Shown here one piece after another: positions 9,001 through 30,000 of a DNA stretch of 64,000 bases. The first letter of the stretch is position 1, and each line of letters opens with the position of its first letter. The DNA is from Longimicrobiales bacterium (GTDB taxonomy: Bacteria; Gemmatimonadota; Gemmatimonadetes; Longimicrobiales; Gaopeijiaceae), in contig OZ252251.1 in assembly GCA_965249725.1 (NCBI GenBank), positions 672,001 to 736,000 of the forward strand, read 5' to 3'. The position numbers were made by a program.

Positions 9001-12000
9001 CGGAGACGAAGTCCGCGACCTCACTCCCCTGATTGGGGGGCGCGAGCATCACGACCCGTCCCTGGTGATTCGGCGAGTGTGCCCCCAGGTAGAACCGAAC
9101 TAGAAGGCCTCCCATGGAGTGTGTGACGAAGTGGACTCGCGTGATGTCCTGGGCACAGCACGCTTCCAGCCGGGCTCGCAGGCGGGCCACCAGACTCTCG
9201 ATGGGTTCGTCGGTCGAAGGGTAGCCGAAGTTGAAGACACGGAATCCGGCGGCCTCGAGTCGCTCCACCAGAATCGCCATCGACGTGGGCGTGCGGCCGA
9301 GCCCGTGGACGACGATGACGGTCTCGGCGTCGTCGTCGACCGGTGGGGACAGGCACCCCGAAACGAGCAGGGCCACCAACGTGGATACGAGTAGGAATGG
9401 GCGCGTCGTGATGGGCACGGCTCCTTCACCTCTCCGGTACTTCGGGTCACTAACGGTACGGGCATCTGTACCTGTGGCACAGAGGTATCCCGGAGCCGTG
9501 GGTGAGAACCGGGACCCAGGGCATTGCAGGATCATTCGTCCCCGTAGTATGTCCCATGGGTCGGACGCTCGCCCGCCCCGGGCCTGAGACCGTTGGATTC
9601 CAAGTCGGCAAAGGAACGACCATGACCACGCGCAGATCCTTTCTCCATGGTGCCGCGGTACTCCCGTTGGGCACGTTACTTCCCGGTGTCGAAGACTCCG
9701 CTCTTGGACACGCTTCCGGACAGGCCCCGCGAGACTACTTCGCCGAACTCGAGCTCGGCTCGTTCATCAACGCGGCGGCTCCTTACTCGTCCCTCTCCGG
9801 CTCACCGATGTGGCCCGAGGTCATCGAGGCGATGGAGTATGCCATGACCCGCCCGGCCCGAATGAGTGAACTGCACGATGCCGTCGGCAAACGGATCGCG
9901 GAAATGGCGAGGAGTGAGGCGGCGATGGTGACGGCGGGCGCGACCTCGGCGATCACTCTCGGGACCGCCGCCTGCCTAACGGGCACCGATCCGGACCTCA
10001 TCCATCGGCTCCCCGACACGACCGGCATGAAGGACGAAGTGATCATCCAGAAAGGCCATCGCTACAGCTACGAGCACGCGGTCCGCAACTGCGGCGTCCG
10101 CCTCGTCGAGGTGGAGACGATGGCCGACGTGGACAGAACGATCAGCGAGAGCACGGCGATGCTCATGTTCAACTACAGCCAGTTGGATCGTGGAGGAATC
10201 GGTGCCGCAGAGTGGGTGGAGGTCGGCCGGAAGAGCGGGATTCCGACGTTCTGTGACGGGGCCACGATGCTGCCCCCCATCGAGAACATGTACATGCTCG
10301 TGAGCTACGGATTCGATCTGCTGTGCTTCTCCGGCGGGAAGGGGCTGCGCGGTCCATATAGCGCCGGACTCCTGATGGGCCGGCCCGATCTAGTGGCAGC
10401 GGCACGCCTCAACTCGGCCCCAAATGACGATGCCATCGGGAGGGGCATGAAGGTGGCCAAGGAGGAGCTCCTGGGGACCATGGTGGCCGTGGAGACCACC
10501 GCCGCCTTCGACTACGAGACCAACATCAAGATGAAGAGGGAGTGGGTCGACGCCATCGCCGCCGAGATCGACAAGGTCCCGGGAGTTGAGACCCTGGTCT
10601 ATTACCCCAAGGGGGACAACCATCAGCCACAACTCCGGATCACCTGGGATGAATCGAGAATCCGACTCACTCCGGCCGAGGCGAAGCAGAGGCTCCGGGA
10701 TGGCAACCCGGTGGTAGAGGTGCACTATCTGGGCCTGACGGACGGTAACCTGGAGCTCACGGCCTGGGTGCTCGAGGCCGACCAGGTCGCGGTCGTGGGT
10801 CGGCGGGTCCGCGAGGTGCTCGAGGCGGCGTCGTGACTCGTCCCCACGAAGGCCTTTCCTATAGCGGGGCCAGGACCCGCTTACTACGTTGCTCGTCCGC
10901 CTCAATCGCTCGTATCAGTCGACACCGTACGATTGCCACACATGCGGGAGGAACCGCTCATGTCGTACCCCCGAACCACCATCCTGGGCGCCGTTGCGGC
11001 CTTGGTTGCCTTCGCCGTCTTCGCCCCTACGCCCTCTGAGGCGCAGTGGAATGCGCTGGAGCGCGGAAGCGACAACATCGAAGTCCTCGGACATCTGCCC
11101 CTCGGCCCCGCGCTCAACGTCGCCGATATGGACGTCGAGCAGGAGCTGTCCCGTCCCTACGCCTACGTGGCTCGCATGGTCTACGCAGGCCAGGGGGTCA
11201 TGGGCATGGACGTCATCAGCATTGAAGATCCGTCGCAACCCGAGCTGCTCTACGAGTGGCGCATCGAGGAGCAGGACCTGCACCTCGGTCGAGGCGGCAT
11301 GGACGTCAAGCACTTCAAGTGGAATGATCGCTACTACGTGATCCAGTCCACCCAATTCGGGCAGGGTGGCCCGGATTCGGACATGGGCGGCGTCGTTCTC
11401 GACGTGACCGGTCTACCCGATGCATCGACGGTTCGTGAGGTCGCGCGAATCAGAGAGCCTCTCATGCCGGGTGGCTTCCACAACATCTTCGTCTACAAGC
11501 ACTCCGACGGGCGGGTGTTGTTGTTCGCAACAGTTTCAGGCGCCTTCGCGCAGGTTTACGACCTGGGCAAGCTGGTTGAAGGCGCCTCGTCCGAAGAGGC
11601 ACGCGCCGGCCGGGTCCCCAACCCCAGCTCGGACGAAGGAGGTGGACGGGGATATCACGACTTCTACGTCGGCTACCATCCAGACACCGATCAGGATCGG
11701 TTCTACGGCGGTGGCGGTGGTGGGTACTACATCTACAACGTCAGCGACCTTGAGGAGCCCGAGCTGGTGGTCACGCTCACGGGCGTCAGCGGTGTCGGTG
11801 GCGGCCACACGTTCACGCCTGGCCCGAACGGTCGCTACGTGGTGGCGGAGACGGAGTACGAGTTCGCACCGCTCAGAATCTTCGACCTGGAGCCTGCCCT
11901 GGAAGGGGAGGCCACGAACATCCGCCGACCCATCTCGGGTTGGACGGCCGACTACAAAAACTTGACCCACAATCACGAGATCCGGTGGCCGTTGGTCTTC

Positions 12001-27000: not shown

Positions 27001-30000
27001 AGTCCCCGACATCTCCAGCGCTCAGAAGTGGGATGAGCCCGTGCGTCGTCCAATAAGCGAGTAGATCATGAACATCTTTATTCCGATTGCGGTGGCGGTG
27101 CTGGGTGTAGGGCCCAACGGGGCTCAGGCGGCCCCGGCCATGTGTTTCGCCGCCGACAACCAGCCTCCCGTCTTCTATCGGGTGGAGCTCATCACCACGA
27201 AGCGAGTCCCGGGGTCGGGAATGGCGACCGGCGCGGGCGAGATCACGTTCACGCCCTCTCCGTTCGCGGTGAACCTCACGCCTGAGGGTGATTACCTGCG
27301 TGACGTGAACATCACCGTGAACGGTCTCAAGCCGGCTGCGAGCGGCAACTACGTCGCTTGGGTGACGACCCCCGCATTGGACCGCACCACGCGGCTCGGC
27401 GTGCTTGATGCCGACGGAACCGCCAGCGGACAGATCGCCTTCAACAAGTTCCTCCTCGTGATCTCTCTCGAGGAAGACGACGGCTCGTCCTCGGAGCGTT
27501 GGAAGGGACCCATCGCGCTGAGGGGCATGTCCCGGAGTGGGGCAATGCACACCTCTGCGGGGCACGGACCCTTCGTGGTCGAGAACTGCACGGGGTACGG
27601 CTTCAACGGGTAAGGAGTCAGCCCGTTCACAACGACATCCCCGTCGGTCTCGGTCATCCGTGGCCGACGGGGATGTTTCGCTTTCAACCGAAGTGATACG
27701 CATGCGCCAGACCAATAGCCGACGGTCCGCTGGGCCGCGGAGATCTTACAGAATCCTAGGGGCCACGGTACTCGGCCTCTCCGTTCTCACCGGCCAGTTA
27801 CAGGCCCAGGAGATGGACCACAGCCAGCACGAGATGGAGATGGGTGACAGCCTGATGTGGACCATGCCTCCTCATCCCGTGTGGATGAACCCGGCCATGA
27901 TGGCGCCGTTCATGGGGATTCTCCCCGACGTCGAGCCGTTCATGCCTGGCTGGGAACTGGACATCATGACGTTGCCGGTCGCGAAGGCGCCCGAGGTGGT
28001 CCAGCTCGCATCAGGGGACACGCTCCGACTCGATGGCGGGATCCTACACGGAATGGTGGGCAGCCGGATGCTCAAGGTGTACGGGTTCAACGGCCAGTTC
28101 CCCGGACCGACGCTCAAGGTGCCCCAGAACGCGTCAATCACGGTGGAATTCACCAACAACATCGACTTCGCGACCACCCTGCGTTGGCACGGGGTGAGGG
28201 TGGAGAACGAGTACGACGGCGTGCCGGGCCAAACGCAGAGGCCGGTCCGCGTCGGGGCGACCTATACCGCGGAAGTCACGTTCCCGGATGCGGGCGCATT
28301 CTGGTATCATCCGCACCAGCGCGGGTACATCGCGCAGGATCTGGGTCTCTACGGTGCGATCCTCGTGGACTCGCCCGATCCCGACTACTACGCGCCCGCC
28401 AACTCCGAAGAGGTGCTAATCCTCGATGACGCCCTCATGACCGCGACGAACTGGGCTCCGTTCGGCCTGGAGGCCCCGACGAATGCTCTCATGGGGCGTT
28501 TCGGCAACGTGCTCCTGGTCAATGGACGTCCCGGCTTCAGGAAGGACGTCAAGAAGGGCGACGTCGTGCGGCTGCACCTGACCGACGCCTCGAACACCAA
28601 GAACTACAATCTCAGGGTCGAGGGTGACGTCCCGATGAAACTCGTTGCCGGAGACTTGAGCCGGTATGAGCACGAGCAGATGGTGTCCAACGTGATCATC
28701 GCTCCCGGGCAGCGGTACACCGTGGACACCAGGTTCGCCGAGTCGGGCGAGTACGCGCTCACCAACCGGATCACGGCCGTCGATCACTGGATGGGAGAGT
28801 ACTTCTATCAGGTGGATACGCTCGGTGTGTTCGTCGTCTCCGATGAGGAGACCGATCAGGACTACGGCGCGCAGTTCGCAGAGCTACGCACCAACGATGA
28901 CGTCGTGGCCGAGTTCGCGGCCGTGCGCGCCCAGGCGGGTCGCCAGGTCGATGAGGAACTCGTGCTGTCGCTCAAGGTCGGCGAGTTGCCGATCCCCGTC
29001 ATCATGATGATGGAGATGGATACTCTCTTCTATCCTCCGGTCGAGTTCAACGATGCCATGCCTATGATGAACTGGCTCTCCACGGGCATCGACGTCATGT
29101 GGCTCATGCACGAGCCCTCGCCCGGAGTGTCGCCTCGGGACCTCGGGCCGGCGGTCGGCTGGCGGTTCAAGCAGGGCGACATCGTCAAGATTAGGGTGTT
29201 CAATTCCCACGACTCGTGGCACCCCATGAGCCATCCGTTGCACCTGCACGGTCAGCGGTTCGCAGTGATCGAGCAGGACGGTGTGCAGACGGACAACCTG
29301 GTGTGGAGGGACACCATCCTGATTCCGGTGGGCACCACCATGGATCTTATGGTGGAGATGTCGAATCCCGGCACGTGGATGTTCAACTGTCAGATTCCGG
29401 AGCACGTGGGATCCGGCATGTCGATGAATTTCACGGTGGATCCGGTCAACTAGGAGCGATCCGCTTCCTAGAAGACCGGCTGCCTGGCCTTCCGCACCAC
29501 GAAGAGCCCCTCTCGCATGCTCGTGAAGATGATCAGCCCGCTCTCGAAGAACGGGTAGTTGCTCCACGAACCGGCGAATCCGGGCGAGTTGTCTCCCACT
29601 GGAACGCTGTCGAAGAACCCGACCTCTCTCGGCTCGGCCGGATCCGATACGTCGAGGATCCTCAGTCCGCTCACATAGTTGGACTGGTACATGAACTGGC
29701 CGTTGACGTAGAGGTTGTGGTCGGACGCGGCGGTTTCGCCGAGATGCTCTTTGACCAGCACCGGATCGTCGAGGTCTTCGATGTCCCACACCAGCGTCCG
29801 TGTGCGCTCGACGAGGCCTCCCACCTCGTCTCCTTCGTCGTTGACGTAGAAGAAGCGGTGATCGTCCGAGATCCAGCCCTGGTGGACGTAGGCGGGGTTG
29901 GGGTAGACGGCCGTGGCGATCGAAACAGGATTCGACTTGTCCGAGACGTCTGAGATGCTGAGGGCGGTCTCGTTGGCGCCAAAGCAGACTTCCCTCCCGG

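Follow-up and report, generated by a model that had tools for sequence, protein, structure and literature searches.

Sb-PTE, the phosphotriesterase (haloalkylphosphorus hydrolase) of Sphingobium sp. TCM1 (5hrm, 5ioj), is a seven-bladed propeller of LVIVD-type repeats with a binuclear Mn centre at its hub. Homologous propellers are gathered under choice-of-anchor B (TIGR04312) and Pfam LVIVD. In NosZ and thiocyanate dehydrogenase, the hub histidines of a seven-bladed propeller hold a multi-copper centre that is coupled to a cupredoxin-type electron-transfer site. Multicopper oxidases (MCOs) such as CueO and CopA (PcoA) are exported proteins of three cupredoxin domains with a Met/His-rich segment, and MnxG of the Bacillus Mnx complex works only with the small MnxE/MnxF subunits encoded beside it. 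The locus described here brings together an LVIVD/Sb-PTE-type propeller, an SOD-like protein of 181 aa, and an MCO-type protein. With a probability of roughly 45%, we read the whole region as an exported three-component metalloprotein module, whose function we infer.

Within the window (the whole 64,000-nt stretch that was analyzed), seven propeller genes (+, 10942–20739) and, beyond a single minus-strand Big_2/Amidohydro_2 gene, three more (+, 22806–27064) precede the 181-aa gene and the MCO-type gene (Table 1). The arrays of two related loci, L023 and L024, have no space for such an interrupting gene. The choice-of-anchor-B neighbor that follows the MCO gene probably lies outside the module; a comparable minus-strand match at this place occurs only at loci L022, L023, and L026.

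Table 1. Features of the locus, in window positions
Feature	Position	Strand	Remarks
Propeller copy 1	10942..12306	+	Signal peptide and predicted seven-bladed His-ring propeller; 77.9% identity to copy 10; His ring kept
Propeller copy 2	12358..13791	+	75.1% identity to copy 10; included in alignment A2
Propeller copy 3	13820..15163	+	71.3% identity to copy 10; tree partner is copy 4
Propeller copy 4	15181..16518	+	73.3% identity to copy 10
Propeller copy 5	16617..17957	+	77.0% identity to copy 10; sub-threshold Pfam LVIVD match, 17.4 bits
Propeller copy 6	17995..19329	+	71.1% identity to copy 10; start is the Met ahead of the signal peptide, read from the translation (longest ORF from 17863)
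Propeller copy 7	19366..20739	+	70.7% identity to copy 10; sub-threshold LVIVD match, 19.2 bits
Interrupting gene, Big_2 and Amidohydro_2	20955..22490	-	Pfam E 1.9e-11 and 7.6e-9
Propeller copy 8	22806..24155	+	75.9% identity to copy 10
Propeller copy 9	24232..25581	+	74.9% identity to copy 10
Propeller copy 10	25715..27064	+	Adjoins the 181-aa gene; copy used for the AF2 model
181-aa exported protein	27068..27613	+	SOD/CCS-like beta sandwich (residues 36-154) and conserved C-terminal tail
Three-domain MCO-type protein	27702..29453	+	Pfam Cu-oxidase_3, Cu-oxidase_2, Cu-oxidase: 109, 83, 70 bits
Neighbor, FG-GAP and true choice-of-anchor-B propeller	29468..31912	-	Distant paralog; TIGR04312 E 1.8e-128

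A tblastn search of the whole genome with copy 10 gave 48 matches, 45 of them strong (44.7–99.8% identity, E ≤ 6e-115) and three weak (about 24%), the latter being choice-of-anchor-B paralogs; a second count, from a genome search at E ≤ 1e-30, also gave 45. The paralogs are about 450 aa long and are predicted to be exported seven-bladed propellers. Within the array, copy 10 is 70.7–77.9% identical to the other nine. None of the ten array propellers has a Pfam name, the two LVIVD matches (17.4 and 19.2 bits) staying under the cut-off of 20.2, and copy 7 reaches 47.1 bits against TIGR04312, where the cut-off is 100. The family thus falls under both curated cut-offs of its homologs (47 vs 100; 19.2 vs 20.2), and it differs from them further in having no sorting-signal domain or extra domains and in having operon partners of its own. 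The AF2 model of copy 10 has seven blades (pLDDT 87.8, pTM 0.87); its best fold-search matches are generic WD40 proteins (Z 30.8), and 5hrm ranks fourth by Foldseek (E 5e-11). The profile match to 5hrm (E 1.9e-5) is confined to LVIVD repeats. No other relative of solved structure was found by sequence, and identity to Sb-PTE is about 14% in an alignment limited to the repeat cores. NosZ and thiocyanate dehydrogenase serve as a working analogy only, as neither has a PDB profile match at E ≤ 1 or appears among the 50 matches listed in either fold search. We found no paper on the propeller/181-aa/MCO module.

The propeller, 181-aa, and MCO genes lie on one strand at 73 of the 80 best-matching loci (Gemmatimonadota, Rhodothermales, and Acidobacteriota), with both intergenic gaps shorter than 700 nt at 66 of those 73. 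Of 20 Gemmatimonadota loci that are more divergent, 19 also keep the three genes together, in three gene orders (12, 6, and 1 loci). There is no fourth conserved gene, since no other gene family is present at more than seven of the 80 loci. These data support the view that the triad is an exported and self-contained unit, conserved across at least three phyla. Across phyla, median identity is 69% in the proximal propeller, against 50% in the 181-aa protein and 47% in the MCO.

In at least 43 of the 45 propeller paralogs, 94 positions are conserved, among them seven histidines (His45, 108, 174, 181, 234, 284, and 338), each found in 44 or more. Among the proximal propellers (copy 10 and those of 62 related loci, 60.7–85.7% identical to it), 163 positions are near-invariant, eight histidines included. 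In the AF2 model, His108, 174, 234, 284, and 338 stand 0–2 residues ahead of the first strand of blades 2–6. Their hydrophobic-His-polar strand-start motif (FHN, YHD, GHT, HNHE) aligns with the “FHS” inner-strand entry of Sb-PTE, whose His (5hrm chain residue 302, or 389 via an offset of 87) is presumably a Mn ligand. Judged from these strand positions and from Sb-PTE, the five histidines would meet at the hub, on the top face of the propeller, where they and invariant acidic residues most likely coordinate two or more metals. Sb-PTE has four His and two Glu instead of the 7–8 invariant histidines seen here. The choice-of-anchor-B neighbor, 25% identical to copy 10, has His174, His234-Asp235, His284, and His338-Asn339 in common with it but not His108; His45, 108, and 181 are extra invariant residues of the propeller family. 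The evidence thus supports an uncharacterized family with a ring of invariant histidines.

Up to this point our analysis agrees with the earlier note, which had described a 45-copy family of seven-bladed propellers with generic WD40 and 5hrm matches and conserved histidines, ten copies of it standing ahead of the 181-aa and MCO genes in a triad that recurs in several phyla. It had also counted 44 of 45 paralogs as exported and one as N-truncated. By a crude hydropathy test, a hydrophobic N-terminal segment precedes the conserved core in all 45, so that all are predicted to be exported, and the supposed truncation gives way to a single in-frame TAA stop in that copy (C3:1914145-1915416).

It is useful to ask whether the propellers could be non-catalytic binding or surface proteins, acting in ligand capture for TonB-dependent uptake or in adhesion, with structural histidines and an MCO neighborhood that reflects co-regulation only. 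LVIVD proteins are usually taken as cell-surface repeats, according to one account (10.1101/2022.05.06.490989). The generic WD40 matches would suit such a role, as would the direct adjacency of 12 of the 45 copies to SusC/SusD pairs. Nevertheless, we consider it very improbable, because the 163 near-invariant positions and the 69% median identity far exceed what diversifying binding families show, and the triad persists through changes of gene order. In addition, the histidines lie outside the LVIVD consensus stretch matched by profile, at equivalent inner-strand entries, like the presumed Sb-PTE ligand.

The 181-aa protein is built like CCS (domains II and III) and like metal-free SOD-like proteins such as B. 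subtilis YojM (1s4i): the sandwich is of the Greek-key SOD type but lacks the SOD metal ligands, and after it comes a short tail in which metal-type residues are conserved. Thirteen of the best 14 structural matches of its AF2 model (pLDDT 78.9) are SOD, CCS, or SOD-like proteins, a modest likeness (Z 6.4–8.2, Foldseek E 8e-3). The protein differs from CCS in having no CXC motif or Atx1 domain, and there is no Pfam Sod_Cu match. Alignment A1 shows no metal ligand conserved within the sandwich, and the conserved residues of the tail are M160, H161, H166, E172, and C174 (M-x5-M-H-x4-H...E-x-C). Members of this family also have hydrophobic N-termini. At 19 of the 20 tail-less loci examined, a single reading frame runs from a signal peptide through the SOD-like domain and a Met-rich segment into the MCO, and no propeller lies within about 3.5 kb of those 19. 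Such a fused gene is present in the source genome itself (C3:137600-139750) and on the minus strand of loci L081, L091, and L099. The fusions indicate that the SOD-like domain and MCO can act without a neighboring propeller, a point against the three-component reading, and because of them the 181-aa protein looks more like a subunit or adaptor of the MCO than like the Cu chaperone that had been proposed. The invariant Met/His/Cys tail is carried by the free form, whose gene always has a propeller gene nearby; the propeller is most likely what this tail contacts or serves. Mnx likewise pairs an MCO with adjoining small accessory subunits, a parallel of gene arrangement, not one drawn from homology; Mnx has no propeller.

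The MCO-type protein has a possible twin-arginine signal. It shares three cupredoxin domains, export, and a Met/His-rich segment with CueO and CopA; here the segment is N-terminal and counts 11 Met and 3 His among 54 residues, “MDHSQ” included. All four copper motifs are canonical in 65 of the 80 triad-associated MCO sequences tabulated. However, the three MCO paralogs of the source genome read RWHG instead of HWHG and NCQ instead of HCH. Alignment of the window MCO with the laccases 4f7k and 6vox shows the same H-to-R and HCH-to-NCQ changes beside intact type-1 ligands. It is therefore missing three of the eight trinuclear-cluster histidines, or three of the ten copper-binding histidines. The 15 sequences of this form (the window MCO, two paralogs, and 12 related loci) are monophyletic with pairwise identity down to 55%; thus, the NCQ form is maintained, not decaying. 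With only its type-1 site intact, the MCO is not a canonical oxidase in the source genome, and the copper-dependent oxidase activity previously assigned to it is doubtful there.

These features bear on whether the triad serves copper homeostasis or resistance, as a unit in which a CopA/CueO-like periplasmic cuprous oxidase would be joined by a copper-binding or copper-sequestering propeller and small protein. CueO and CopA are indeed the best NCBIfam matches of the MCO, but they score far under their equivalog cut-offs (133.7 vs 525 and 111 vs 479). The Met/His-rich segment, the M160, H161, and H166 of the 181-aa tail, and the copper proteins (SOD, CCS, CrdA) among the structural matches of that protein all point toward copper. 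Yet the MCO is partnered by the propeller and SOD-like protein instead of CopB/C/D, and neither these nor a P-type ATPase, CusABC, or a copper regulator is conserved nearby. Metal resistance would not lead one to expect 45 paralogs, arrays with position-by-position orthologs, or a link to SusC/SusD; with the oxidase site degraded as well in the source-genome clade, this explanation appears quite unlikely.

The array itself is not a local amplification, contrary to the earlier suggestion that the propeller gene was amplified here, because in the tree its copies fall together with those at corresponding array positions in other Longimicrobiales genomes. Copy 1 groups with the first of four copies at L023, copy 6 with the second copies of L023 and L024, copy 8 with the third of five at L024, and copy 9 with L023 copy 3 and L024 copy 4. 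Rhodothermales have propeller arrays of their own. Total copy number is 13–45 in the source genus vs 0–3 elsewhere. The SusC/SusD link, previously seen only in the source genome, is present in two congeners too.

We propose that the propellers are the working, probably catalytic, part of the metalloprotein module, and that the ten position-orthologous copies and 35 further paralogs, 12 of them in SusC/SusD loci, would serve a range of extracellular substrates. The SOD/CCS-like sandwich of the 181-aa adaptor would go with the MCO-type protein, whose blue (type-1) copper would make it the redox partner. The MCO of most lineages would be able to pass electrons on to O2; in the source-genome clade it is probably an electron carrier or scaffold only, because of the three lost trinuclear ligands, a loss that argues against a simple oxidase role. 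Unlike in NosZ and thiocyanate dehydrogenase, the propeller and cupredoxin protein would come from separate genes, with a third protein bridging them.

Alternatively, the propellers may be binuclear Mn/Zn/Fe hydrolases of the Sb-PTE kind that act on esters, lactones, phosphoesters, or amides in nutrient acquisition. The MCO and 181-aa protein would then serve cofactor maturation only, oxidizing and handing over periplasmic metal outside catalysis. That Sb-PTE is a hydrolase, that the choice-of-anchor-B paralog has four of the histidines, and that no MCO lies near 35 of the 45 copies are all consistent with this explanation, which we nonetheless judge unlikely. With three trinuclear ligands gone, the MCO of the source genome should oxidize metals poorly, and still the triad persists, held together through shuffled orders more tightly than is usual for a maturation factor able to serve 45 paralogs from one locus. 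His45, 108, and 181 also go beyond the set in common with choice-of-anchor B. The hydrolase explanation further draws on the neighbors of the other paralogs, which include amidohydrolases, peptidases (M19/M20/M24/M28/S9), gamma-glutamyltranspeptidase, and SusC/SusD without glycan enzymes. The amidohydrolase and peptidase neighbors fit hydrolysis as well as redox chemistry.

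Within the window, ten propeller genes stand in tandem ahead of the gene for the 181-aa protein and a multicopper oxidase (MCO) gene, as the earlier note had described, with a single minus-strand interruption that leaves a run of seven and a run of three. The intergenic gaps of this array measure 3–133 nt, and its last ORF bears all three multicopper-oxidase domains by Pfam. The features are collected in the table. Of the two genes that follow, the choice-of-anchor-B gene has a similar minus-strand match after the MCO in loci L022, L023 and L026 only, and the small cytochrome gene shows no conservation among related loci.

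Features of the propeller/181-aa/MCO region and its immediate neighbors
Feature	Position	Strand	Basis or remark
Ten propeller ORFs, seven then three, ~445–477 aa each	10942–27064 (region 10.9–29.5 kb)	+	ORF reading
Single Big_2 + Amidohydro_2 gene between copies 7 and 8	20955–22490	−	separates seven copies from three
181-aa ORF, downstream of the ten propellers	27068–27613	+	ORF reading
583-aa ORF, after the 181-aa ORF	27702–29453	+	ORF reading
FG-GAP + true choice-of-anchor-B protein, 814 aa, convergent with the MCO	29468–31912	−	TIGR04312, 428.9 bits
Small c-type cytochrome, just past the module	31962–32498	+	Cytochrome_CBB3, E 7.7e-7

The association of these three genes is widespread. An alignment of the 181-aa family drew 328 relatives from species-representative genomes, and we used the best 80 of these 328 loci (by record title, 46 Gemmatimonadota, 21 Rhodothermales/Rubrivirga, 5 Bacteroidota-labelled, 7 Acidobacteriota, and 1 unassigned). 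In 73 of the 80, a propeller gene lies upstream and an MCO gene downstream on the same strand, with both gaps under 700 nt in 66 of the 73. Among the exceptions, L028, L055, and L094 have no propeller match upstream and L057 is cut at a contig end; a downstream MCO is missing from L050, L079, and L096, two of which (L050 and L096) have one upstream on the opposite strand. Any fourth gene family is confined to at most 7 of the 80 loci, and the occasional neighbors are PKD-OmpA proteins, gamma-glutamyltranspeptidase, alpha/beta hydrolases, S9 peptidase, and DinB. Since the best 80 loci are biased toward close orthologs, we drew a further 20 loci from a sample of the whole phylum, each with a free-standing 181-type gene of greater divergence. 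All three genes share one strand in 19 of these, and the twentieth stops at a contig edge. The gene order varies among them: propeller-181-MCO in 12, 181-MCO-propeller in 6, and MCO-propeller-181 in 1. Thus, the linkage has been kept through rearrangement, which is the strongest evidence here that the three proteins work jointly. The claim that the unit recurs in several phyla is borne out. The 181 family is present in 50 of 121 sampled Gemmatimonadota genomes, or in 48 of 119 without the unpublished genomes G019 and G085. A full-text literature search found no paper on the module, which is real, widespread, and unstudied. In the genome under study, two 181-propeller pairs lack an MCO. A distance of 12 kb, with inserted plus-strand genes, separates one of them (C3:306001-307781) from the third MCO (C3:291907-293598), which is encoded on the same strand; the two may once have formed a single triad that later came apart.

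The 181-aa protein is modeled as an eight-stranded sandwich (residues 36–154) with a low-confidence tail (pLDDT 78.9). Of its top 14 structural matches, 13 are Cu,Zn superoxide dismutases (SOD), CCS domain II, or SOD-like proteins, at modest Z scores of 6.4–8.2; Foldseek alone returned nothing under E 8e-3. The protein has no Pfam Sod_Cu match and no invariant histidine within residues 36–154, and the model suggests a likeness to SOD by fold only. The invariant metal-type residues of the family all fall in the tail (M160, H161, H166, E172, and C174). The protein atlas offered unnamed clusters only, and RskA_C was rejected as a family name, its Pfam rows being weak and limited to 10 of 31 members (best E 0.012).

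The genome carries four copies of the 181-type domain, one of which (C3:137600-139750, or L008:8243-10390) is joined in frame to an MCO in a single 716-aa ORF that runs from a signal peptide through a tail-less SOD-like domain and a Met-rich segment to the MCO. In the phylum sample, about 39 of the 72 listed 181 matches stop near model position 165, within open frames of 660–1561 aa. We drew 20 loci from this list, 19 tail-less and one, from genome G065, in which the match extends as far as position 178. In each of the 19 tail-less loci the domain is fused in frame to a canonical MCO, and no propeller match occurs within about 3.5 kb; the G065 locus has separate genes with a propeller upstream. 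The fused, tail-less form thus stands without an adjacent propeller, whereas the free, tailed form has propeller and MCO alongside. Fusions were met only among tail-less forms, with none among the 77 plus-strand pairs of the best 80 loci, and fused 181-MCO genes without a propeller neighbor are common across Gemmatimonadota. In three Longimicrobiales genomes (L081, L091, and L099), a fused gene on the minus strand (about 1350–7060) is divergent from a complete propeller-181-MCO triad, so that fused and free forms coexist at one locus. The copper-chaperone role proposed in the earlier note needs revision: the in-frame MCO fusions and a sandwich that lacks conserved histidines point instead to an MCO-linked adaptor. 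The small protein would be an MCO subunit turned free adaptor, whose tail would face the propeller. A complex prediction for propeller copy 10 and the 181-aa protein (score 0.00, mark 0.32) gives no answer either way.

The MCO-type protein itself departs from the textbook enzyme. The window protein scores over the cut-off for Cu-oxidase_3 (109.1 bits), Cu-oxidase (70.5), and Cu-oxidase_2 (82.8), indicating three cupredoxin domains, but falls below those for CueO (NF008205, 133.7 versus 525) and CopA (TIGR01480, 111 versus 478.95). A full MCO set comprises ten histidines and one cysteine in the motifs HxH, HxH, HxxHxH, and HCHxxxHxxxxM, and the window protein does not carry it. Aligned to solved laccases, its motifs read RWHG, WYHPH (HPH), HPLHLHG, and NCQIPEHVGSGM. 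Seven of the ten histidines are retained and the type-1 ligands (His, Cys, His, Met) are all present; the first histidine of motif 1 and both histidines flanking the type-1 cysteine are replaced, which removes three trinuclear-cluster ligands. By the general chemistry of MCOs, a protein without those ligands should not be able to reduce O2 at the trinuclear site. All three MCO genes of the genome (27702–29453 in the window, L008:8243-10390, and L014:5119-6927) have RWHG and NCQIPEH in place of HWHG and HCHxxxH. The same pattern occurs in 12 related loci, and 65 of 80 tabulated MCO sequences are canonical. In a FastTree phylogeny the 15 altered sequences group in one clade (support 1.0), within which pairwise identity falls as low as 55%, so the altered MCO has been long maintained. 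By these motifs, the MCO of this clade is degenerate and non-canonical.

A tblastn search of the 4.16-Mb genome with propeller copy 10 returned 45 strong copies and three weak choice-of-anchor-B paralogs, and a second genome-wide search again gave 45, in agreement with the family size first proposed; these counts are based on tblastn and stop-to-stop frames. The names of its homologs assign the genome to the Longimicrobiales within Gemmatimonadota. One paralog (C3:1914145-1915416, or L019:6941-8251) has an in-frame TAA stop and is probably a pseudogene. That stop, rather than a truncation, accounts for the odd copy annotated as N-truncated. A crude hydropathy test found a hydrophobic N-terminal segment in 45 of 45 copies, which usually ends in A-x-A/Q and lacks a lipobox cysteine; export is thus upheld, with the count raised from 44. 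Elsewhere in the genome, the minus-strand genes for a PALP enzyme (L004:4242-5272) and LtrA (L019:8412-9585) are each split into two adjacent ORFs that match two halves of the Pfam model. These splits are possible frameshifts or assembly indels and call for caution with reading frames from a single genome.

The family is borderline for the LVIVD model (PF08309, cut-off 20.2 bits), since a close homolog, P0083, has a precomputed PF08309 row; eight of the ten window copies have no row and two reach 17.4 and 19.2 bits. Two copies tested against TIGR04312 (choice-of-anchor B) scored 47.2 and 47.1 bits against a cut-off of 100, and the protein atlas places the propeller in "LVIVD repeat-containing" clusters. 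The AF2 model of copy 10 shows the seven-bladed propeller expected from the earlier note (pLDDT 87.8, pTM 0.87), and a structure search with it found generic WD40 proteins at Z about 31. The Sphingobium phosphotriesterase (Sb-PTE, 5hrm) was Foldseek rank 4 (E 5e-11), and the family profile reached only Sb-PTE among solved proteins (E 1.9e-5), over repeat cores only. NosZ and thiocyanate dehydrogenase were absent among the matches listed in the PDB profile and fold searches, which is compatible with a distant relation.

Alignment of the 45 copies showed 94 positions kept in at least 43, including His45, 108, 174, 181, 234, 284, and 338 and many Asp/Glu. In the AF2 model, His108, 174, 234, 284, and 338 sit 0–2 residues ahead of the innermost (first) strand in each of blades 2–6. 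The choice-of-anchor-B neighbor at 29468–31912 has four of these family histidines in common, and its "AHN" motif pairs with "FHS" of Sb-PTE (chain residue 302), whose histidine is a manganese ligand of the binuclear center of that enzyme. By way of this paralog, one ligand-type motif of Sb-PTE aligns with the FHN-type motifs of the propellers; elsewhere the alignment covers repeat cores only. This ligand and the strand positions suggest a putative metal site in the propeller. Across phyla, the proximal propellers are 60.7–85.7% identical, with a median of 69%; the corresponding medians are 50% in the 181-aa protein and 47% in the MCO. In 63 of these propellers, 163 positions, including eight histidines, are near-invariant. 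This degree of constraint is enzyme-like. Clustered at 90% identity, the family amounts to at least 2,678 clusters; 3,628 representatives match its profile at E <= 1e-10. A search for longer or fused forms gave nine distant multidomain proteins of the choice-of-anchor-B or LVIVD type, none of them fused to an MCO, cytochrome, or 181-aa domain.

Contrary to the reading in the earlier note, the array is not a local amplification. In a quick maximum-likelihood tree of 95 propellers with SH-aLRT support, the ten window copies form one clade (support 99) with array copies of four other Longimicrobiales/Gemmatimonadota genomes and pair with them by position. Copy 1 groups with copy 1 of L023, copy 6 with the second copies of L023 and L024, copy 8 with copy 3 of L024, copy 9 with copy 3 of L023 and copy 4 of L024, and copy 10 with the last array copies. 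Rhodothermales arrays likewise show positional orthology among themselves. Such pairing across genomes implies that the arrays are old and maintained. Within 7-kb flanks, 56 loci have one upstream propeller, seven have two, four have three, four have four, and five have five. What is unusual in this genus is the high total count: 45 in the genome under study and 13 and 35 in two congeners, versus 0–3 in 28 other relatives; 15 of 31 genomes have none at E <= 1e-30. With these queries, the two congeners yielded no close counterpart of the window array (best match 61% identical), and for the 181 gene no match in one and only distant matches in the other.

Part of the expansion is tied to SusC/SusD genes. 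No such pair adjoins the window array, but four other loci (L003, L004/L005, L007, and L021) hold 12 of the 45 propellers, in the order SusC, SusD-like_2, often a small OMP beta-barrel gene, and then one to four propellers. In these 12 copies, 54 of the 163 near-invariant positions vary and the histidine ring is retained. In three of the four loci (L003, L004, and L021, at C1:~609700, C2:~203600, and C3:~2442700), an OMP_b-brl gene of about 217–256 aa adjoins the propellers, standing between them and the SusC or SusD gene; its product might anchor the lipobox-less propellers. A fifth SusD-like_2 gene is separated from a 181-propeller pair by 6.4 kb that include an integrase gene. The earlier note had seen the link in this genome only; coordinate comparison shows SusD-like_2 genes adjoining propellers in the two congeners as well (three of five and one of three), and two more distant relatives have no SusD-like_2 gene.

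The conserved module put forward in the earlier note stands, with a degenerate MCO clade, an MCO-linked adaptor, and an ancient array replacing parts of its interpretation. We give roughly a one-in-four chance to a joint reading in which the triad forms a periplasmic redox metalloenzyme of a new class. At the propeller hub, a metal cluster held by several histidines would oxidize a small extracellular substrate, while the sandwich of the free SOD-like protein would dock on the MCO and its Met/His/Cys tail would reach the propeller. Electrons would exit via the MCO blue copper; canonical forms would pass them to O2, and the clade that lacks the trinuclear cluster would use a different acceptor. 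Position-orthologous propeller arrays would broaden the substrate range. Few exported proteins of marine and soil Gemmatimonadota, Rhodothermales, and some Acidobacteriota are as conserved as these propellers. A function for them would account for a widespread kind of MCO that carries an additional SOD-like domain, for a natural MCO clade that keeps the blue copper site alone, and for the import cargo of non-glycan SusC/SusD loci in Gemmatimonadota. Because carriers are in culture (Rubrivirga isolates and Gaopeijia maritima), direct testing is possible.

The window also encodes two giant surface-type proteins on the plus strand, one of 1145 aa with Big_2, CARDB, and PPC domains (38962–42399) and one of 1771 aa with LRR, Calx-beta, fn3, and SWM repeats (48205–53520). 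G+C around the latter gene is 73–74%, versus about 64% elsewhere. An IS110-family transposase gene lies at 57043–58065 on the minus strand.
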